From positions 1 to 43,691 of the forward strand of contig CAWHWQ010000006.1 of the NCBI GenBank assembly GCA_963833095.1: DNA of 43,691 nucleotides. Direction: 5' to 3'. The notes under the pieces were generated by a model that did not search any database, was not told the origin of the DNA, and saw nothing but the letters and a program-made list of their open reading frames with translations. Below, one piece after another: positions 23,801 through 41,927 of this stretch (positions are counted from its first letter, which is position 1; every line of letters starts with the position of its first letter). The position numbers and the translations under genes were made by a program. The stretch is from Vulcanimicrobiota bacterium (GTDB lineage Bacteria > Vulcanimicrobiota > Vulcanimicrobiia > Vulcanimicrobiales > Vulcanimicrobiaceae).

Positions 23801-23875
23801 TGGTGACTCGGGGGTGATTTGAACACCCGACCAAGGGCTTATGAGTCCCCTGCTCTACCGCTGAGCTACCGAGCC
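23801..23875 (-). tRNA. tRNA with CAT anticodon, non-initiator (elongator Met favoured; Ile2 not excluded), CCA encoded
   Basis: GGCTCGG/CCGAGTC acceptor with paired G1-C72, anticodon arm GGGGA-CTCATAA-GCCCT, GGGTG-TTCAAAT-CACCC, A-CCA. Confidence 0.93.
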
Positions 23876-33600: not shown

Positions 33601-34146
33601 CTACGCGCTGGGTGCGGTAGGGCCCGTCATCGGCGGCTCTTCGACGAACACGGCTTTTGGTGCGGTGTGCCGCGGGCGACGCAGGCGTGCAAGCAGACCG
33701 TCGACACCAAGCACGCGACCGGTCGGCAACACCAGGCTCAGTGCCGAAAGCACGAGCGCGGCGGAATCCAGACCCGACCACACGCTCAAGTGCGCAAGCC
33801 CGCCTTTCGCCGAGATGTAATTCAGCGACAGAAGGACGCCGATCAGTCCGCCCAGACGCGTGTAAAAGCCAAGGAGCAGCAAACAGCCCGTGACTACTTC
33901 GCCCAAGCGTACGAGTTCGGCGAAGAACCATGCGTTAGGAAGCACCACGTTGGTCAGAAACGCTTGATAGAATCCACCCGTGTGGGTGATCTGTTGATTG
34001 AGGAATTGCGTCATCATGCCGTTTGGCGGCATGAAATCCTGACTCTGTGTAAATTTCGGAATGCCGTGCATGAGCCAAAATGCGCCGGTATAGATGCGAA
34101 ACAGCGATAGCCAGTATGCGTAGGTCGATGAAGATGGGAGCTTCAC
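33601..34146 (-). CDS. DoxX/DoxD family membrane protein
   Basis: 'LFRIYTGAFWLMHGIPKF', 'GEVVTGCLLLLGFYTRLG', 'GRVLGVDG'; GTG start overlaps the upstream stop, after SD GGAGG. Confidence 0.85.
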   Translation of the reverse strand: MKLPSSSTYAYWLSLFRIYTGAFWLMHGIPKFTQSQDFMPPNGMMTQFLNQQITHTGGFYQAFLTNVVLPNAWFFAELVRLGEVVTGCLLLLGFYTRLGGLIGVLLSLNYISAKGGLAHLSVWSGLDSAALVLSALSLVLPTGRVLGVDGLLARLRRPRHTAPKAVFVEEPPMTGPTAPSA

Positions 34147-35330
34147 GCCGGAACCTCCTTTGGTGCTGAAACGAGCCGCAAAATCAAGGAAGCGGCATCG
34201 CGCGCAGCATCCGGGCGCCCATGTTGCCCTGCTGCTTGAACCATTCGCTCGCGACGGGCGGAATCCGTCAAAATTGCCGTTAACGCGGTTGGAAGATCGC
34301 TCATCGTGCGTGCCCGAATTGCGACACCCCAATCGGTCAGCACCCGCACGTTGCGCTCTTCCTGTCCGGGCAGTGGTTTGAGCAGTACGATCGGCATCTG
34401 CGCGGCAAGCGCCTCGGCCGTGCTCAGGCCACCGGGCTTCGTGACAAAGACGTCCGCCGCATGCATGTAATCGTAGACATTGTCAACGAAGCGCACGACG
34501 CGCACGGGATAGCTCACGCTCTCGGCTGCTGCAAGCACGCGACTCTCAGCACGTGCATTGCGACCGGCGATAACGACGGCGGCGAGCGGTACGCTCACCG
34601 CCTCCATTGCGCGCAGCGCGCGTTCTAATGGTCCGATTCCGAGGCCTCCGCCCATCACCAGTGCAATCGGCCGGTCGAGTGGTAAACCCAAACGCTCGCG
34701 GATCACGTGCGCCGGCTGCGCGCTGCGTTTGAAGCGCGGATCGACCGGAATGCCCGTGACGGCGATGCGTTCGGGGCGTACGCCGCGCGCGATCATCAGA
34801 TCGCGCATGCCTTGGGTCGCGACGCAGTAGCCTTCGATGTTGTCGTGGATCCAGAACGCATGCACCGCAAAATCGGTCACGATGCCGATGACCGGAGGCG
34901 CGTCGTCATAGAGGCGTTTGTACTCCGCCATCGCGCCGCTTGGGAATGCATGCGTGCATACAATCGCATCGGGGCGCTCGCGCTCGATCAGCGAGCGCAG
35001 ATTGCCGGCAGTGAATTGATGGGCCCAGGTGCGAAAGGGCCCGACCTCGGTCGCGCGCTCGGCGCGGTCGTAGATATAGCGGTACATTTGCGGTATCGTC
35101 TTGACCATCCGCAGATACCCATCCGAGACCACGCGCGAAACGACCAGCGCGGCATATTTGTACGAGTCCACGACCTGCGTGTGAATGTCTGGGTCAAGCT
35201 CACGCAACGCAAAGCAAACGGCGTTAGCTGCCGAGACGTGCCCGACGCCGACGCTCGCCGAAAGAAAGAGGACGCGAATTAGTGTCGCACCACTAACTCT
35301 CGCCGCCTTCCTCTCCGGCTTCTTCGGCAA
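34143..35330 (-). CDS. MGDG-synthase/UgtP-like diacylglycerol glycosyltransferase (GT28)
   Basis: 'LSASVGVGHVSAA', 'IVCTHAFP', 'IVTDF..HAFW', 'TGIPV', 'VMGGGLG', 'TKPGGLSTAEAL', 'PLPGQEERN'. Start is either TTG 35330 or ATT 35279. Confidence 0.9.
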   Translation of the reverse strand: MPKKPERKAARVSGATLIRVLFLSASVGVGHVSAANAVCFALRELDPDIHTQVVDSYKYAALVVSRVVSDGYLRMVKTIPQMYRYIYDRAERATEVGPFRTWAHQFTAGNLRSLIERERPDAIVCTHAFPSGAMAEYKRLYDDAPPVIGIVTDFAVHAFWIHDNIEGYCVATQGMRDLMIARGVRPERIAVTGIPVDPRFKRSAQPAHVIRERLGLPLDRPIALVMGGGLGIGPLERALRAMEAVSVPLAAVVIAGRNARAESRVLAAAESVSYPVRVVRFVDNVYDYMHAADVFVTKPGGLSTAEALAAQMPIVLLKPLPGQEERNVRVLTDWGVAIRARTMSDLPTALTAILTDSARRERMVQAAGQHGRPDAARDAASLILRLVSAPKEVPA

Positions 35331-35592
35331 ACACCAGAAACTCGTCGAGGATCTCTTGCGCGAGCGTATCGTCTTCGAGCAGATTGCCTTCGAGATCGGT
35401 CACGATGAACTCGCTCTCGGCCTCTTCGTCTTGCGGCTCGTGCATCAGCACCGCGTATGACGCGCCATCGTCGGGATCTTCGAGTATGCCCACCACCTCG
35501 AACGGCAGCTCCCCGCCGTCCTTGGTCTCGATGTAGAGCACCTCGCTCAATTCGAGCGGGCCGCTCTTGCTTTCACCGTTGTTGGACGACAT
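35293..35592 (-). CDS. DUF1292 family acidic protein
   Basis: 'YIETKDGGELPFEVVGILED...SYAVL'; very acidic; ruvX/mltG context; SD AGGAG. Confidence 0.8.
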   Translation of the reverse strand: MSSNNGESKSGPLELSEVLYIETKDGGELPFEVVGILEDPDDGASYAVLMHEPQDEEAESEFIVTDLEGNLLEDDTLAQEILDEFLVFAEEAGEEGGES

Positions 35593-35613
35593 GTTGGCTC
35601 CTTAGAAGGCGAT

Positions 35614-36573
35614 TTAATGAAGACAGCGCTGGACGTTGGCTTGATGTTCGGAAAGCGTCTTCGCAAACACATGATGCCCATTCCCGCAGTACACGTAGTA
35701 TAGGTCGTCGGTTTTTGCCGGATGGAGCGCGGCCAGGAGAGCGGGCAGGCCCGGGTTGGCGATCGGGGTCGGCGGCAGGCCGGCGTGCTGGTAGGTATTA
35801 TACGGCGAATCGATCTGCAAGTCGCGCAGCGATAGTGCCGCTTTATGCCGGGGCAGTGCATATTCGATGGTGGCGTCGACCTGAAGCGGCATCCCTAGGC
35901 GCAGCCGATTGTAGATGACGCCGGCGATCAGCGGACGGTCAGCCTCGATCTTCGCCTCGCGCTCCACCAGCGAGGCAACGGTAACCGCTTGCGCCACGCT
36001 CACGTGGAGACCGCGCGCGAGCTGCGCTGCGTCGGGTGGGAGTTCCTTGGCAAACTGATCGGTGAGCATGCGCGTCACCTGAGCCGGCGTCGCCGCGAGC
36101 GGTATGAGGTAGGTGCTGGGAAATAGGTAGCCCTCGTGGCCGTGAAACGATCGCTCGAACGAACCGGCGCGCCCGACGCCTTCTTCTTGCAGACGCTGCG
36201 CGATCTGCTGCGCGGTGAATCCCTCGGGAATGGATACCCACGTGGCTACCTGCGCGCCGCCGCTCACGAGTTGATCCAAGATCTCTGCTGCCGTAGCGTG
36301 CGGCGCGAATGCATATGCGCCCGCGCGCACCTCGGCATCGGCGCGGCGTGCACGCGCAAGCACGCGAAAAGCAAGCGCGTTGCGAATAACGCCGCGAGAC
36401 TCGAGCAAAGAGGCGATGTCGGCAAGGGTCGATCCGCGCGGGACCACGACCTGCACGCTGGTCGAAGGGAGCGAACGATCCAGAAACACCGTCGCGAACC
36501 ACGCCGCGACAACGCCCGCGACGAAGAGCGCAGCGAGCGCAACGAGAACGCCCACTATGCGACCTCGCGTCAC
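35614..36573 (-). CDS. mltG: Endolytic transglycosylase MltG
   Basis: N-terminal TM, 'IPEGFT', 'EGYLFPSTY', 'ASLVEREA', 'IAGVIYNRL..GMPLQVDAT', 'SPYNTY..GLPPTPIANPG'. Confidence 0.95.
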   Translation of the reverse strand: MTRGRIVGVLVALAALFVAGVVAAWFATVFLDRSLPSTSVQVVVPRGSTLADIASLLESRGVIRNALAFRVLARARRADAEVRAGAYAFAPHATAAEILDQLVSGGAQVATWVSIPEGFTAQQIAQRLQEEGVGRAGSFERSFHGHEGYLFPSTYLIPLAATPAQVTRMLTDQFAKELPPDAAQLARGLHVSVAQAVTVASLVEREAKIEADRPLIAGVIYNRLRLGMPLQVDATIEYALPRHKAALSLRDLQIDSPYNTYQHAGLPPTPIANPGLPALLAALHPAKTDDLYYVYCGNGHHVFAKTLSEHQANVQRCLH

Positions 36574-36992
36574 GAACCGCCCAAACGCCGGCGCGCGAGA
36601 AAGGTCTCTAGAATCAAAGCCGCGGCCATCTTATCGACAACGGTTTTGCGGCGTTTACGCGACACGTCGGCGGCGATGAGCGTTTTCGTTACTTGAGCGG
36701 TGGTCATGCGCTCATCGACGCGGTGAATCGTTCCCTTGAACACCGAACGCAGCGACTCCACGAACGCGTCCATCTTCGTAGCGGCAATGCCGCGCTCGCC
36801 CGAAAGCGAAATTGGATCTCCGACAACCAGATCGCTGACGTCGTAGGATTCCACGAACTCCTCGATCCGCGCGAGATCGGCACGCAGATTGACGCGTTCG
36901 ATCGTTCCGACCGGCAGGGCAAACGTTTCTGTGGGATCGGCCATCGCCACCCCGATCCGCTTGCTGCCCACATCCAGCGCCAAAATGGCTAT
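36570..36992 (-). CDS. ruvX: Putative pre-16S rRNA nuclease / Holliday junction resolvase-like RuvX (YqgF)
   Basis: 'ILALDVGSKRIGVAMAD', 'LVVGDP', 'VDERMTT', 'VDKMAAALIL'. Start is ATA 36992 (inferred) or TTG 36983. Confidence 0.92.
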   Translation of the reverse strand: MAILALDVGSKRIGVAMADPTETFALPVGTIERVNLRADLARIEEFVESYDVSDLVVGDPISLSGERGIAATKMDAFVESLRSVFKGTIHRVDERMTTAQVTKTLIAADVSRKRRKTVVDKMAAALILETFLARRRLGGS

Positions 36993-37711
36993 GATGCTGC
37001 CTTCGGCTTTCTACCGAGGTGGTGGACGACGATCTCCTCGATCGCCACGCCGACGCGCGGCCGCGCGAGCACCGCCGCACCACCGGCGCCGCGCGGCGTG
37101 CGCAGACCGGCCAAATTGTGCAAGTCTTCAGCATCGAGTTCGACCAGATCGCGCCACACCTCACGGCACGACACACAAATGAAGCCACCCGCTTGCGGAT
37201 CCACCCACGCCTGCTCGCGCACGAAACCTTTGCCGCAGCGGATACACGCGTCAACCGGCGGCTCGATGCCCAGCGACGCGAGCAGTCGCAGCGAAAAACG
37301 CGGCACCAGCGCACGCGGCGTCTCGCTCGCAGCGATTGCCGAGATGACGCCGGAGAGCAATCCATAGATTTCCGGCACCGCAAGGTCCGGCTCGCAGAAC
37401 GCGTCGATGAGCTCGGCCACAAGCTGCGCGGTACCAAAGCGCTCGGGTTCGACCAGCCGCTCCCACGGCGCAGAGATGATGTCGGCGTGAACGATCACGT
37501 CAAGCGAACGTCCGTGATGCATTTGAAGTTCGCACTCGTTACCGAACTCGAGCCGGCCGGCAAAATGACTCTTGGCACGGCGCACGCCTTTCGCCACCGC
37601 GTCGAGTTTTCCGCGTTCGCTCGTGAAGAGACGAATGATGCGGTCGGCTTCACCGAGTGGGCGGGCGCGCAGCACGATGCCGCGCGTTTTATACGAGCGG
37701 GCCGAAGGAAT
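36989..37711 (-). CDS. recO: DNA repair protein RecO
   Basis: 'SYKTRGIVLRARPLGEADRIIRLFT.ERGKLDAVAKGVRR.KS' and zinc finger CIRC...CVSC. Start is ATT 37711 (inferred) or GTG 37675. Confidence 0.93.
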   Translation of the reverse strand: MPSARSYKTRGIVLRARPLGEADRIIRLFTSERGKLDAVAKGVRRAKSHFAGRLEFGNECELQMHHGRSLDVIVHADIISAPWERLVEPERFGTAQLVAELIDAFCEPDLAVPEIYGLLSGVISAIAASETPRALVPRFSLRLLASLGIEPPVDACIRCGKGFVREQAWVDPQAGGFICVSCREVWRDLVELDAEDLHNLAGLRTPRGAGGAAVLARPRVGVAIEEIVVHHLGRKPKAAS

Positions 37712-38090
37712 GGGGAAGCAACTCCGCGATGGTGGTCGTCGCCGTGCCGTCGGGCGTGGTGTATACCACCGTCATCTTGGGGTTGAATTCGGCCAGCACT
37801 TGGCGGCACGCTCCGCACGGGCTGGTCAGCAGACCGTCGGGACCCGCAACGGCGATTGCTGCGAACTCGCGAAAACCGGCGCTTACTGCGGCGCCGACAG
37901 CAACGCGCTCGGCGCACATCGTCAGTCCGTAGCTCGCGTTTTCCACGTTGACGCCCATGAACACGTGACCTTCACCGGTATCGAGCGCCGCACCGACGGC
38001 AAAGTGCGAATACGGAGCGTAGGCGTTCTCGCGAACCTCGCGCGCGGCCGAGAGCAACGCCTCATGATCACTGAGCAACGTCGTGCTCAT
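37689..38090 (-). CDS. cdd: Cytidine deaminase (homotetrameric type)
   Basis: 'AYAPYSHFAVGAAL', 'GVNVENASYGLTMCAER', 'SPCGACRQVLAEF', 'ELLPHSF'. Confidence 0.96.
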   Translation of the reverse strand: MSTTLLSDHEALLSAAREVRENAYAPYSHFAVGAALDTGEGHVFMGVNVENASYGLTMCAERVAVGAAVSAGFREFAAIAVAGPDGLLTSPCGACRQVLAEFNPKMTVVYTTPDGTATTTIAELLPHSFGPLV

Positions 38091-39390
38091 CTGCGTGAAG
38101 CTCCTCGTCGGTGGTGGCCGTGCCGTTGGGACTGATAAAGACGCGAACCGAAAGGATCCGGCGGCCGCGCGTGCGCTCCACCTTCAGGCGTGTCTGCCTA
38201 TCGGCCTCGATCTCCTCGCCTTCGCGCGGCAAACGTCCGAAGAGACCGACCACATAGCCCCCGATCGTTTCGAAGTCTTCGAAGGGAATATGCGTGCCGA
38301 GCTTGTCGTTCACGTCTTCGATGTTGGTGCCAGCTTCGACCACTGCCTCTTCATCCGAGACGACGTGGATCGGTTCTTGCTCGTCTTCGTCGTGCTCATC
38401 GCGAATCTCCCCGACGATCTCTTCAAGCAAATCTTCCATGGTGACCAGGCCGGCGGTCCCGCCGTATTCATCGACCACGATCGACATCGAGAACTTTTCG
38501 CGCTGCATCTCGCGCAGAAGCTCGGCGATCTTTTTGGTTTCGGGAACGTGCGAGGCGGGGCGCATGAGCGCGCGCAGACTGGTCTGCGCAAGCGTACCGT
38601 TGGCGAGTGCAATCAACAGCTCGCGGTCGTGCACGATGCCGACGATGTCGTCTTTGGATTCCTGGTAGACGGGAAGCTTCGAGTAGCCGTCGGCGATCAC
38701 CACGTCGAGCGCGCGTCGCGGCGAATCGTCGATCGAGACCGCCACGATCTCCGGGCGCGGCGTCATGACCTCGCGCACGATCGTATCGCCGAACTCGATG
38801 ACCGAATGGATCATCTCGCGTTCTTCTTCTTCGATCACGCGCTGCTCGGCACCGACGTCGACCAGCGAACGAATGTCTTCTTCCGTTACGTAGATCTGAT
38901 GCGCGACCCGGATGCCGAAGACGCGCAAGATACCGTTAGCCACGAAGGTGAAGGCATTGCTGATCGGGCCGATCACTACCGCAACGATGCTGAGCGCGGG
39001 CGAAAGCACGAGGAGCCAGCGGTCGCCACTCCCGGCCGCCAGCGTTTTGGGAATGATCTCGCCAAAGAGCAAGAGGACGACCGCCATTACGCCGGTCGAC
39101 CATAGGGCTGGCTGCGTAAGGCCCATGTCGATCGCGAGCGTCGTGGCAAGCGAGTCGGCCGCGAGGAGCGCGATCGTGTTCCCGATCAAGATCGAGGTGA
39201 GGACGTGGCTCTTGTCATCCACCAACGCAACGAGGCTATCGGATCCCCGCAGCTTGCGATCGTGGATGGTTCGGGCCCGTACCCGCCCGACCGAGACGAG
39301 CGCCGTCTCCGAGGCCGAAAAGAAGGCCGAGGCCAGCACCAGGACGATCAGCACGGCGACTTCAAGCCAGTTTGGATGGGCCGCCGTCAT
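38068..39390 (-). CDS. Hemolysin family HlyC/CorC (CNNM-CBS-CorC) membrane protein
   Basis: 'SAFFSASETAL', 'FGEIIPKTLA', 'VREVMTPR', 'VVDEYGGTAGLVTMEDLLEEIVGEI.DEHD', 'ETIGGYV'. Confidence 0.93.
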   Translation of the reverse strand: MTAAHPNWLEVAVLIVLVLASAFFSASETALVSVGRVRARTIHDRKLRGSDSLVALVDDKSHVLTSILIGNTIALLAADSLATTLAIDMGLTQPALWSTGVMAVVLLLFGEIIPKTLAAGSGDRWLLVLSPALSIVAVVIGPISNAFTFVANGILRVFGIRVAHQIYVTEEDIRSLVDVGAEQRVIEEEEREMIHSVIEFGDTIVREVMTPRPEIVAVSIDDSPRRALDVVIADGYSKLPVYQESKDDIVGIVHDRELLIALANGTLAQTSLRALMRPASHVPETKKIAELLREMQREKFSMSIVVDEYGGTAGLVTMEDLLEEIVGEIRDEHDEDEQEPIHVVSDEEAVVEAGTNIEDVNDKLGTHIPFEDFETIGGYVVGLFGRLPREGEEIEADRQTRLKVERTRGRRILSVRVFISPNGTATTDEELHADEHDVAQ

Positions 39391-39431
39391 GGTGCGGTAC
39401 TTCGGTCAGGGTCGGTATTCAAAACGGCGCC

Positions 39432-39440
39432 ATTATACCA
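39432..39440 (-). promoter_or_regulatory. Internal extended -10 promoter upstream of the hemolysin gene
   Basis: TGG-TATAAT consensus overlapping the dgkA stop codon, about 40 nt before the ATG at 39390. Confidence 0.55.
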
Positions 39441-40161
39441 TGAGGTGCGAGCGAGCTAGCAGGTAGACCGCCAGGGCGACCACCGTTCCGAGCACCGAGC
39501 CGGCTACCACCTCACCGGTGCTGTGGATCTTGGCCTCGACCCGGCTCTGCGCCACCAGGAAGGCCACAAAGTAGGCTAGCAGGGCCGCCAGCGGGCGCTG
39601 ATAGAGGAACGCGAGCAGAGTGGCAGCTGCGAACGCCAGCGCCGCGTGTCCGGAGATCGCTCCGCCCTGGAGCGCTGATCCCCGCCCCACCCAGGCCTTG
39701 GCGAAGATCGTTGCGATGGCCACCACGGTGAGGACCACGAACGCGATGTTGCTCGGGACGCTCGCCACTGCCTCATAAACCCGTTGGCCTCCGTTGATCA
39801 GGCCTTGATAGAACACCAAGTACCCGACGACGACCGCCGCGACCGACGCAACCAAGACGGCGCCGGCTGCGGCATCTTTGGCCGTTTTCGCAAGCGGATG
39901 GTGCGTCACGGTGAGCAGATCGACGATCGACTCGACCGCGGTATTGAGCAGTTCCAGCGCCAAGACCACGGCAATGATAACCACCAAGTCCACGACGTAG
40001 TCGCGGCCAAGACGCAAAATCAGCGCGGCGAGTATCACCAGCAGCGAGATGATCAGATGCGCCCGCATGTTGGGCTGCGTGCGCGCGGCGTACATGATAC
40101 CGGCGAATGCGTGGTTGAACGAACGCCAGAATCGCACGCGCGTTAGCTCTCGTACGGCCAA
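39433..40161 (-). CDS. dgkA: Diacylglycerol/undecaprenol kinase fused to a PAP2-like domain
   Basis: 'SFNHAFAGI...QPNMRAH', 'ELLNTAVESIVDL', 'AKTAKDAAAGAVL'; C-terminal 'GGAISGHAALAF...QSRVEAKIHS..EV'. Confidence 0.88.
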   Translation of the reverse strand: MAVRELTRVRFWRSFNHAFAGIMYAARTQPNMRAHLIISLLVILAALILRLGRDYVVDLVVIIAVVLALELLNTAVESIVDLLTVTHHPLAKTAKDAAAGAVLVASVAAVVVGYLVFYQGLINGGQRVYEAVASVPSNIAFVVLTVVAIATIFAKAWVGRGSALQGGAISGHAALAFAAATLLAFLYQRPLAALLAYFVAFLVAQSRVEAKIHSTGEVVAGSVLGTVVALAVYLLARSHLMV

Positions 40162-40589
40162 GGCATGCCGATGGCCGCAGCTAGGCGGCGCTCCTCGGCT
40201 TCCATCGCGCGCCGCTCGTCAGGCTCCATATGATCGTGACCGAGCACGTGGAGCAAGCCGTGAATCATCAAGCGCTCGACCTCGCGTTGGAGCGGGGCGT
40301 CGTACTCGGAGGCTTGACGGCGCGCCGTCTCGATCGAAATGACGATGTCACCGAGCAATACTTCGGGGACGAACCCCTCCGGTTCGAGCGGAAACGAGAG
40401 CACGTCGGTGGGCGTATCCTTGCCGCGGTGCTCGCGATTGATTTCGCGAATCGCAGCGTCGTTGACCAAAGTCAACGAGATCGCCGCATCCGCATGATCG
40501 ACTTCGGCGAGCAGCTTGCGCATGACGCCCTTTATCGCGCGCGGATCGAGGCCGCTGCCGCGCACTTCATTGCGGTAGTGGATTTGCAT
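40143..40589 (-). CDS. ybeY: rRNA maturation endoribonuclease YbeY
   Basis: 'IREINREHRGKDTPTDVLSFP', 'LGDIVIS', 'HGLLHVLGHDH'; ATG at 40589. Confidence 0.95.
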   Translation of the reverse strand: MQIHYRNEVRGSGLDPRAIKGVMRKLLAEVDHADAAISLTLVNDAAIREINREHRGKDTPTDVLSFPLEPEGFVPEVLLGDIVISIETARRQASEYDAPLQREVERLMIHGLLHVLGHDHMEPDERRAMEAEERRLAAAIGMPWPYES

Positions 40590-41520
40590 ACGCTTTGATG
40601 ATCTTGGCGACCAAGGAGTGACGCACGACGTCGGTTTCATCGAGTTCGACCACGCCGATGTCCTCAAGCCCACCGATGCGCCGGGCCGCGTCGCGCAGCC
40701 CGCTGCGCGCGCCTGACGGCAGATCGATTTGCGTGACATCGCCGTTGACCACCATCTTCGACCCCGAGCCTAGGCGCGTCAAAAACATCTTGAGTTGATC
40801 CGCCGTTGCGTTTTGCGCTTCGTCGAGAATCACGAAGGCGTCGCTGAGCGTCCGGCCGCGCATGTAGGCAAGCGGCGCCACTTCGATCGTGCCGCGCTCG
40901 AGATAGCGCTCAACGACCCCGGCGTCGAGCAAATCTTCGAGGGCGTCGTAGAGAGGACGCAAATACGGATCGACCTTCTCGCGTAAATCGCCGGGAAGAA
41001 ATCCGAGCTTTTCGCCGGCTTCCACGGCGGGACGCGAGAGGATCACGCGCGCAACCTCGCGATTCTTGAGCGCCTTCACCGCCATGACTACGGCGAGAAA
41101 CGTCTTGCCCGTACCGGCCGGACCGATGCCGATCGTGAGCGTGTTGCAGGCGATCGATTGCACCAGGGCACGTTGCCCCGCGGTCTTGGGCCGAATCTCT
41201 TTTCCGCGCTGCGTACGAATGAGCGTGCCGGGCAACGCGCGACCATTCTCGCCCGCACCCGCATCGGCAATAGCAAGGGCGACGTCATCCGGCGTAATCT
41301 GCGCGCCCTCGACCGCGGCATCGAGCATGCGCCGAACCGCGTGTTCCGCGCGCTCGACGTTGGCCGTCGTGCCCGCAAGCGTGAGCCGGTCACCGTCCGC
41401 GCGAACGCTCACGCGCAGACGATCTTCGAGCGCCGAGAGGTTCTGATCGAATTGTCCGAAGAGACGAACGCGATCTACGAGATCGCTTAGATCGACGGTT
41501 CGCTGTGACGTGGACTCCAG
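40567..41520 (-). CDS. phoH: PhoH family ATPase
   Basis: 'GPAGTGKTFLA', 'RPAVEAGEKLGFLPGDL', 'PLAYMRGRTL', 'DEAQN', 'GDVTQIDLP', 'DVVRH'. The N-terminal 'LFGQFDQNL..LE' lies upstream of GTG 41412, implying a CTG start at 41520. Confidence 0.93.
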   Translation of the reverse strand: MESTSQRTVDLSDLVDRVRLFGQFDQNLSALEDRLRVSVRADGDRLTLAGTTANVERAEHAVRRMLDAAVEGAQITPDDVALAIADAGAGENGRALPGTLIRTQRGKEIRPKTAGQRALVQSIACNTLTIGIGPAGTGKTFLAVVMAVKALKNREVARVILSRPAVEAGEKLGFLPGDLREKVDPYLRPLYDALEDLLDAGVVERYLERGTIEVAPLAYMRGRTLSDAFVILDEAQNATADQLKMFLTRLGSGSKMVVNGDVTQIDLPSGARSGLRDAARRIGGLEDIGVVELDETDVVRHSLVAKIIKAYANPLPQ

Positions 41521-41927
41521 ATCGTTTGCTCCTGAAATGCTTTGGGCGGCCCCAAGACCTCGGCGGCGACGATTGCCCGCACGAGTGTCGCGCTCCCTCC
41601 GAACATACCACGAATCGGTGAGGTTCTAATCGGCGCATGCACCAGCGTGTACTCCGGCACCGGCGCGGGCGCGGGCGGCCTTGGTTTTGGCGGCGCCACC
41701 GGGCGCGGCGGCGGTGGCGCCTCGACGACCGGCGGCATGGCAAATGCGGCCGTGACCAACCGCGGCGGCGGAACCGGCTGTGGCTGCGGCCGGGGTTGCG
41801 GCTGCTGGACGGCAGCTTGCGGCGCAGCCGCACGTTGCGACCGCGCCCGCGCGACGTTCTTGCGAATGCTCGAGATCACGCCGAACGCCACGATGATCAG
41901 CCAGATAATCAGGCCGATGTTATGCAT
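41487..41927 (-). CDS. Membrane-anchored Pro-rich protein (YqfB-position gene)
   Basis: N-terminal TM, Pro-rich linker, C-terminal 'LVRAIVAAEVLGPPKA' motif; follows floA. Confidence 0.75.
   Translation of the reverse strand: MHNIGLIIWLIIVAFGVISSIRKNVARARSQRAAAPQAAVQQPQPRPQPQPVPPPRLVTAAFAMPPVVEAPPPPRPVAPPKPRPPAPAPVPEYTLVHAPIRTSPIRGMFGGSATLVRAIVAAEVLGPPKAFQEQTIWSPRHSEPSI

Follow-up and report, generated by a model that had tools for sequence, protein, structure and literature searches.

In Escherichia coli, two or three of about 4,300 genes start at a near-cognate codon such as ATT, ATC, ATA or CTG, and not at one of the canonical codons ATG, GTG and TTG. Here we describe four such starts within one operon of an uncultured soil bacterium of the Eremiobacterota, in which the genes for a PhoH-like ATPase (phoH), RecO (recO), RuvX (ruvX, also named yqgF) and a glycolipid synthase are probably translated from CUG, AUU, AUA and AUU/AUC, respectively. 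The four genes lie on contig CAWHWQ010000006.1, the whole of which (43.7 kb) was analysed and is called the window below. Near-cognate starts as such are already known, and the present genes are further members of that class. What is less ordinary here is that four occur in one operon and arose at two depths of the tree, that ATA is among the codons, and that the starts are consistently placed at gene junctions. Among the titles and abstract openings that our literature search returned, no paper on start codons in Eremiobacterota was found.

The closest described system is infC of E. coli, where AUU lies in a UAA GGU AUU junction, re-initiation and de novo initiation are reported to have about equal shares, and AUU gives six- to eight-fold less output than AUG in a reporter (PMC3592434); another data set, as quoted in PMC10666635, puts ATT at about 0.3% of ATG. 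The genome studied here resembles this system in a GT4 glycosyltransferase gene with the junction TAA GCC ATT, in infC genes that start at ATA, ATC or ATT across the class, and in the conservation of the near-cognate AUH codon (AUA, AUC or AUU) among relatives, as reported for E. coli (PMC3592434). It differs from the E. coli cases infC and pcnB, both with AUU, in that phoH, recO, ruvX and a lipid glycosyltransferase are concerned, four in one operon, with AUA and CUG among the codons. Autoregulation by initiation factor 3 (IF3) has been demonstrated for E. coli infC, whereas here the comparison is one of start codons.

Several cases have also been described in Deinococcus, namely dnaA at ATC (N-terminal peptide), rpsL at CTG (unlabelled peptide and locus alignment), Deide_03051 at CTG (fold argument) and infC at ATA (proposed from alignment) (PMC2830850). 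As there, we deal with a non-model phylum and with housekeeping genes at ATC, CTG or ATA that are conserved in relatives and were missed by annotation (PMC2830850). Unlike there, where some cases rest on mass-spectrometry peptides, the evidence presented here is conservation, and the account of the Deinococcus starts reports no link to gene junctions in the sections describing them (PMC2830850). A very poor start codon is known from the E. coli recJ gene, in which a GUA start mutation is IF3-suppressible (Haggerty and Lovett 1997, as cited in PMC2268962).

The junctions themselves recall the ATGA, TAATG and TGATG overlaps of translationally coupled genes, since both the -4 geometry (ATAG at recO-ruvX and at pth, CTGA at a gene for a PASTA-domain protein) and the -1 geometry (TAATC/TAATT at the synthase in relatives) occur here (PMC10666635, PMC12548453). 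The difference from known ATGA/TAATG coupling is that a near-cognate codon supplies the start within the overlap, and that the resemblance is one of sequence geometry. Of the near-cognate codons, a 2023 paper on coupling mentions only ATT, for -5 overlaps, in its passages on overlap types, and neither 'near-cognate' nor 'AUU' appears anywhere in a 2025 review of translational coupling.

Materials and methods

The window is one of the eight contigs of a 2.8-Mb metagenome-assembled genome (80.7% complete), labelled G000. The nearest relatives that bear a name are metagenome-assembled genomes of Candidatus Eremiobacteraeota/Vulcanimicrobiota. Orthologous loci from 40 related genomes were aligned codon by codon, and the families compared were labelled f1 (that of G000), f2 and f3. 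All four focal start codons lie on the minus strand, and their coordinates are given from high to low.

To find further near-cognate starts, G000 was compared with 800 kb each of G023 (same family) and G037 (related at class level), using open reading frames (ORFs) preselected by coding potential. An ORF was flagged when at least eight conserved codons lay upstream of its first canonical codon, after which frame and split-gene filters were applied.

Results

Start codons of the four genes

Every coordinate given for the four non-canonical start codons in the sequence-only reading of this DNA proved correct, and its proposal that these starts would alternate with ATG, GTG or TTG across relatives held as well, with the canonical codon aligned or up to three codons away. 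Because the positions alternate in this way, the alignments confirm the near-cognate starts of the four genes as real. The near-cognate codons are fixed across the genus (recO, ruvX) or the family (phoH, synthase), and a start at the next canonical codon would cost conserved N-terminal residues. In this genome no canonical start lies upstream of the conserved N-terminus of phoH (36 codons) or of recO (12 codons).

Read from CTG 41520-41518, phoH (40567..41520, minus strand) encodes 317 amino acids, of which residues 109-311 match Pfam PhoH. An AGGAG Shine-Dalgarno (SD) motif (41529..41533, minus strand) precedes the CTG at a spacing of 8 nt. From a stop near 41626 onwards the frame is open, and its first ATG, GTG or TTG is GTG 41412, 36 codons past the CTG. 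Within family f1 the CTG is present at 22 of 23 loci, one genus having GTG instead; CTG and GGAG recur at the identical 8-nt spacing at 20/20 loci (our genome, 17 genomes of the genus and two sister genera), all 20 with at least 34 codons that include no canonical one. Two further genera of the family, represented by G023 and G020, again have CTG and no canonical codon, and in G017 and G010 an in-frame TAA stands seven codons ahead of the CTG, the interval holding no canonical codon. Outside the family, the start is ATG at five f2 loci and TTG at two f3 loci, one codon off in 7/7. The C with which the CTG begins is silent in the upstream reading frame; T or A there would yield TTG or ATG, and the invariance of this C at 20 loci would count in favour of selection for a weak start.

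The first 14 codons of phoH (CTG to GAT, 41478-41520, minus strand) show a single nucleotide change across 18 genomes (L001-L018), acc gtc to acc atc in L016. The same 18 genomes, with this near-invariant 5' end, diverge in protein sequence by up to 16%.

The recO gene (36989..37711, minus strand), read from ATT 37711-37709, encodes 240 amino acids. Counted from the ATT, positions 2-176 of TIGR00613 match residues 8-184 and positions 3-78 of RecO_N match residues 6-80, while the first canonical codon, GTG 37675, is residue 13, 12 codons after the ATT. Both the ATT and a GGAG motif 10 nt upstream of it (37722..37725, minus strand) occur at all 18 genus loci, seven of which have a stop 7-9 codons upstream of the ATT and no canonical codon between. 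Beyond the genus, ATG or GTG is found within 0-4 codons at 12/12 loci, and at exactly the aligned codon at seven.

For ruvX (36570..36992, minus strand; 140 amino acids from ATA 36992-36990), positions 3-133 of the Pfam RuvX profile match residues 3-133, so that the ATA falls at profile position 1. It overlaps the recO stop TAG 36991-36989 as ATAG, and an in-frame TAG lies seven codons upstream. A partial SD motif, GAAGG (37000..37004, minus strand), stands 7 nt upstream of the ATA; the sequence 'gcc gaa ggc' precedes the ATA at 14/15 genus loci and 'caa ggc' at the remaining one (L046). The ATA itself is kept at 15/15 intact genus loci, and ATG, GTG or TTG occupies the same position at 11 of the 12 loci outside the genus. 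Codon 4, which is TTG 36983 here, is TTG, ATG or GTG at eight genus loci and CTC or CTT at seven, an alternation from which it appears to act as an internal hydrophobic residue; where it is CTC or CTT (7/15), the next canonical codon lies past a conserved Asp. Since ATA makes up only 2.8% of Ile codons genome-wide (462/16,395), its repeated occurrence at N-terminal boundaries is not put down to chance.

The glycolipid synthase gene (34143..35279, minus strand), of the monogalactosyldiacylglycerol (MGDG)/diglucosyl-diacylglycerol type, encodes 378 amino acids when read from ATT 35279-35277. Positions 6-368 of NF010135 match residues 2-369, and Pfam MGDG_synth matches as well. The ATT directly precedes 'RVLFLSAS', and only a purine-rich tract is seen upstream. 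At the 15 informative genus loci the start is ATT (2) or ATC (13), and ATT or ATC is also found in four other genera of the family. In f2 there is a GTG at -3 relative to the conserved Arg, as against ATY at -1, i.e., two codons further upstream. A TAA stands directly before the ATT in G015 and five codons before the ATC in G002, the closest relative. An alternative TTG (35328..35330, minus strand), in frame and 17 codons upstream of the ATT, is specific to this genome: at 12 of the 14 other genus loci no upstream canonical codon is present, and in several an in-frame stop intervenes, while L068/L069 have an ATG nine codons upstream of the ATC. The start thus toggles between ATT and ATC, and is never ATG, at 19 family loci, where a G would leave the upstream gene untouched; this pattern, too, would count for selection of a weak start.

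These genes could in principle be translated from the next canonical codon into shorter proteins, the similarity further upstream being a relic or imposed by the overlapping gene. Canonical codons at which this could happen exist (GTG 41412, GTG 37675 and TTG 36983), the TIGR00250 profile begins at the TTG of ruvX, and the stretches upstream partly double as coding sequence of the preceding gene. However, 25 of the 36 phoH codons before GTG 41412 lie past the stop of the upstream gene and still show protein-level conservation, which extends to the PhoH of Firmicutes, a phylum whose proteins align from query residues 1-6. The RecO and RuvX profiles likewise extend upstream of the canonical codons, and these codons are not conserved, as seen in the CTC/CTT at ruvX codon 4 and in the long phoH stretches described above. 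Moreover, if translation began after the ruvX Asp or past the synthase GxGH loop, conserved core residues would be missing. Translation of shorter proteins is, in our view, distinctly unlikely.

Assembly quality and recoding

The G000 assembly has indel errors that mimic lost starts (contigs C1, C5 and C8). One lipoprotein start is broken by an extra A in an AAAA run, and frameshifts affect nuoG-like, atpB, lptB-like and other genes (e.g., C1 near 557418 and near 347610). In the homology screen, split genes numbered 9-10 per 400 pairs in G000, as against 1-5 in two relatives. Inference from a single genome of this assembly is unsafe, given such errors.

Such proven indels, including the one in the AAAA run and a 1-nt insertion in parA, give some substance to the idea that sequencing or assembly errors hide ordinary starts at the four genes, or that the genes are reached by recoding, either through a frameshift or through read-through of the upstream stop. 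For read-through there is also a small upstream gene in frame with the synthase in G002 and G015. Errors are ruled out for the four focal codons because these are found again in 15 to 20 genomes assembled independently of one another. Among the differences listed for public short-read contigs, no substitution or indel falls at the four codons; this comparison covers contigs only, and one contig of short-read run X1, possibly the source sample, is identical to positions 35227-36328. The one RNA run compared (X17) yielded contigs only from relatives, at 90-99% likeness. As to recoding, no slippery heptamer was seen by eye in the phoH and recO overlaps, the synthase and its upstream gene do not stand in the same frame relation in all genomes, so that read-through cannot be a general route, and in relatives outside the genus these positions carry canonical starts of their own. 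We regard errors and recoding together as an extremely improbable explanation of these starts.

Initiation machinery and Shine-Dalgarno use

The initiator tRNA of this genome (C1, 389670-389745) is canonical, with a C1xA72 mismatch, three G-C pairs and a CAU anticodon. Another tRNA with a CAT anticodon lies among six tRNA genes in the window (23801-23875, minus strand); it has G1-C72 and an A.G mismatch adjoining the anticodon loop, and appears to be an elongator tRNA (tRNA-Met or tRNA-Ile2).

The infC gene (C2 79944-80699, plus strand) starts at AUH at 29/29 class loci (L252-L281), as ATA in 23/23 f1, ATC in 4/4 f2 and ATT in 2/2 f3 loci. In-frame stops are found 2-6 codons upstream at two loci, and relatives do not share the TTG that this genome has nine codons upstream, since the length of a T-run varies. 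Because infC keeps its AUH start, as in E. coli, IF3 probably still discriminates against near-cognate codons. The IF3 encoded here bears a long C-terminal tail rich in His, Asp and Glu.

Further near-cognate starts in the genome

The screen raised 43 flags among 401 pairs and 33 among 400 for G000, mostly frameshifted genes and 'shadow' ORFs lying in the wrong frame across upstream genes. After the filters 23 G000 ORFs were left, out of 783 gene pairs; five were accepted, two are plausible candidates (MreC-like and DUF2079-like), 14 were rejected and two fell in neither group. The rejected cases include an apparent ATT start of parA (C8 176805-177680), which is the 1-nt assembly insertion mentioned above, relatives having TTG. 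Five other screened ORFs were dropped as indel or truncation artefacts, six as shadow frames and two as chance extensions.

Four of the five accepted starts, those of the GT4 gene, ksgA, the PASTA-protein gene and pth, were confirmed in relatives. The GT4 glycosyltransferase gene (C1 474085-474825, minus strand) has ATT or ATC at 16/16 genus loci, three bases after an upstream TAA or TAG (loci L394-L417). At this one position the codon differs by clade: GTG in f3, GTA at 5/5 f2 loci, ATT/ATC in the genus and CTG in G023. The GTA of f2 overlaps the upstream stop and is preceded by GGGAGGGG at four loci and by GGGGGG at L414, the nearest in-frame canonical codon being 57-58 codons further upstream. 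In ksgA (C1 471235-472107, plus strand), no canonical codon lies upstream of 'GQNFL' at 15/17 genus loci (loci L312-L341). The codon aligned with the ATG or GTG of relatives is GTA (15) or ATA (2) and overlaps the upstream TAA as GTAA or ATAA; an alternative is an ATA four codons further upstream, invariant at 17/17 genus loci. These GTA codons resemble the recJ GUA case in being very poor starts of genes that are apparently coupled to an upstream gene and have no SD motif, output in recJ being set by IF3 (PMC2268962). They differ from that laboratory mutation in being natural, at the ksgA start position of 15/17 genus loci and the GT4 start of 5/5 f2 loci, with the reservation that ksgA has the alternative ATA.

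The gene for the PASTA-domain membrane protein (C1 238970-240058, minus strand; loci L342-L367) has a CTG behind GGAGG with a 7-nt spacer and a CTGA overlap. The CTG is kept at 15/15 genus loci, and f2 has a GTG one codon away. For pth (C2 41565-42200, plus strand; loci L282-L311), ATA overlaps the upstream stop as ATAG or ATAA at 9/18 genus loci. The gene is polymorphic in the genus, with a canonical TTG, GTG or ATG at 8/18 loci; ATA also stands at the junction at four f2 loci, and G037 pth is likewise devoid of a canonical codon. The fifth accepted start, the CTG of an HDAC-like gene, is specific to G000, as opposed to GTG, TTG or ATG at the 14/14 other intact genus loci. The pth polymorphism, the single-species CTG of the HDAC-like gene and the variety of GT4 codons would count for drift and turnover.

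When G037 was inspected by eye with one pairwise alignment each, 6/393 pairs qualified. Candidates with no canonical start there include smc (ATC, against ATG in G000), tmk (CTG), a ydjC-like gene (CTG, against ATG in G000) and a HAD hydrolase gene (CTG/ATC).

The near-cognate rate in G000 is approximately 0.6-0.9% (5 to 7 of 783 pairs), a figure from a conservative screen that would catch only two of the four focal genes; it describes G000 against its two relatives and is no measure of an excess over ordinary bacteria. In a separate count of codons aligned with a partner's unambiguous canonical start, 68 of 153 sites were canonical. Of the 85 non-canonical aligned sites, 6 had ATT, ATC, ATA or CTG, about the expectation from codon usage, i.e., there was no near-cognate excess at these sites.

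The sequence-only reading had offered relaxed initiation in the lineage as one explanation. In its general form, altered initiation machinery would make start selection permissive and leave many near-cognate genes. Four cases in one operon, the additional ones from an independent screen and the 6/393 pairs seen by eye in G037 are what such a lineage might display. Nevertheless, the initiator tRNA is canonical, infC has retained AUH at 29/29 loci, the yield of the screen was low (5 to 7 of 783), the 6/85 aligned sites approximate the codon-usage share, and there is no SD excess before near-cognate codons. General relaxation is therefore not supported as the explanation, and we judge it very unlikely.

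Position of the starts at gene junctions

All accepted near-cognate starts except that of infC adjoin the stop codon of the preceding gene. Counting from where that stop ends, the start lies at -34 nt for phoH, -23 for recO, -4 for ruvX (ATAG), and +13 for the synthase here, where most relatives have -1 (TAATC). Elsewhere in the genome the values are +3 for the GT4 gene (TAA GCC ATT), -4 (GTAA) or -16 (upstream ATA) for ksgA, -4 for the PASTA-protein gene (CTGA), -4 for pth (ATAG/ATAA) and +4 for the HDAC-like gene. Altogether 9/9 near-cognate starts fall within -40 to +15 nt of the upstream stop, compared with 25/52 confident canonical starts (binomial probability about 0.001, post hoc and for a small set). 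A -4 overlap with a TAA or TAG stop allows only an xTA start codon, and this restriction accounts for the recurrence of the otherwise rare ATA.

Layout of the operon

The minus-strand operon is tightly packed, and most neighbours overlap by 4 to 34 nt. It runs from a gene for a proline-rich membrane protein through phoH, probable ybeY, a dgkA-like membrane gene, a CBS-domain gene, a cdd-like gene, recO, ruvX, an mltG-like gene and a gene for a small acidic protein to the glycolipid synthase gene. The ORF of the proline-rich membrane protein (41487..41927, minus strand), for which a Pfam scan gave no match, ends at TAA 41489-41487 inside phoH, a 34-nt overlap. Probable ybeY (40143..40589, minus strand) overlaps the phoH end by 23 nt; its start, ATG 40589, was picked by eye at 'MQIHY'. 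The following ORF (39433..40161, minus strand), judged by eye to encode a diacylglycerol-kinase-like membrane protein, has a TTG start and a 19-nt overlap with the ybeY end. Next come an ORF with an ATG start for a putative CBS-domain/CorC-like membrane protein (38068..39390, minus strand) and a putative cytidine-deaminase-like gene (37689..38090, minus strand), also with an ATG start, whose TAA stop at 37691-37689 lies inside recO, a 23-nt overlap. Beyond ruvX, the GTG start of a putative mltG-like gene (35614..36573, minus strand) overlaps the ruvX stop as GTGA. The gene for the small acidic protein (35293..35592, minus strand; 99 amino acids, no Pfam match at E<=0.001) has an ATG start, and its TAG stop at 35295-35293 lies 13 nt before the synthase ATT.

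Discussion

Given the conservation of the start codons and of what follows them, we consider it likely that phoH, recO, ruvX and the synthase gene are intact and that their translation begins at CUG, AUU, AUA and AUU/AUC, weak initiation at these codons being aided by an SD-like motif and by coupling to the upstream gene. The ordinary initiator tRNA, carrying formylmethionine (fMet-tRNA), would read codons with one mismatch, weakly. It could be aided by an SD-like purine motif 7-10 nt upstream, and by ribosomes from the upstream gene, whose stop overlaps or adjoins the start and which would either re-initiate or open the site. These low-copy enzymes would thereby be held at a low, constant ratio to their upstream neighbours in a packed operon. 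If IF3 still discriminates, the output from such starts would depend on IF3 activity.

Several points weigh against this interpretation. The starts are deduced from conservation, and nucleotide invariance around them is partly forced by overlapping upstream frames. In this genome canonical initiation may still occur at two of the genes: for ruvX at TTG 36983, codon 4, exactly where TIGR00250 begins, and for the synthase at the in-frame TTG 35330. The ruvX codon may also be held in place by its neighbour, as a change of ATA to ATG would destroy the recO stop. SD motifs are sparse in this genome, with GGAG/GAGG-class motifs found 4-10 nt upstream of 306/2380 first canonical codons, and an SD-based scan detected no genome-wide excess of such motifs before ATT, ATC, ATA or CTG, a scan of low power as SD motifs are rare here. 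The 3' end of the 16S rRNA, which carries the anti-SD sequence, was not found in the assembly or the fetched pieces. With regard to coupling, the junction statistic is small and post hoc and pools the cases of the sequence-only reading with later ones. A homology-free census of -4 and -1 junctions gave no clear enrichment; errors in the assembly, and reading frames that simply happen to be open at a junction, confounded it. Finally, termination-reinitiation is described as requiring overlaps or very short distances (PMC10666635), and the overlaps of 34 nt at phoH and 23 nt at recO are long for it.

A stronger claim would be that the weak codons form a selected regulon that senses IF3 or ribosome status, as the sequence-only reading had also suggested, such that the ybeY-operon genes, ruvX, ksgA, pth and infC rise when IF3 proofreading falls, e.g., when immature 30S subunits build up. 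That infC has AUH across the class, that ksgA has no canonical start at 15/17 genus loci, that pth has ATA at 9/18 and that the synthase is never found with ATG at 19 family loci are all in keeping with this idea. So are the reports that 30S subunits which E. coli forms in the absence of KsgA or RbfA escape IF3 start-codon proofreading (PMC6868393) and that IF3 overexpression reduces re-initiation (PMC2268962). The set, however, also includes genes unrelated to the ribosome (GT4, the PASTA-domain protein, the HDAC-like gene and the glycolipid synthase), ybeY itself apparently starts at ATG, and pth is canonical at 8/18 genus loci. The CTG of the HDAC-like gene, present in one genome only, resembles turnover more than a fixed regulon. 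A selected regulon therefore seems rather unlikely to us, while IF3-sensitive tuning as such is suggested, and no more than suggested, by the near-cognate starts of ksgA, pth and infC.

Returning to near-cognate initiation at junctions, it is possible, though we put this forward tentatively and with some doubt, that Eremiobacterota and perhaps other soil Terrabacteria use a wider junction grammar in which ribosomes re-initiate at ATAG/ATAA, CTGA, TAATY and GTAA/GTAG. On this view the start codon would act as a mobile dial for expression ratios, as the GT4 position with its GTG, GTA, ATT/ATC and CTG in different clades may illustrate, and GUA would be a natural start, in ksgA of the genus and in GT4 of f2.

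Conclusions

Gene callers limited to ATG, GTG and TTG would truncate or misplace PhoH, RecO, RuvX, the synthase, KsgA, Pth, IF3 and others across this uncultured phylum, and such truncated gene models then spread into protein databases. With four independent changes from canonical to near-cognate codons in one operon, the locus offers a natural system for studying the stringency of start selection under coupling, and the four junction starts also bear on whether cells set very low enzyme ratios through near-cognate codons. If output does follow IF3 activity, genes for DNA repair and ribosome maturation would in these bacteria respond to the status of the translation machinery.

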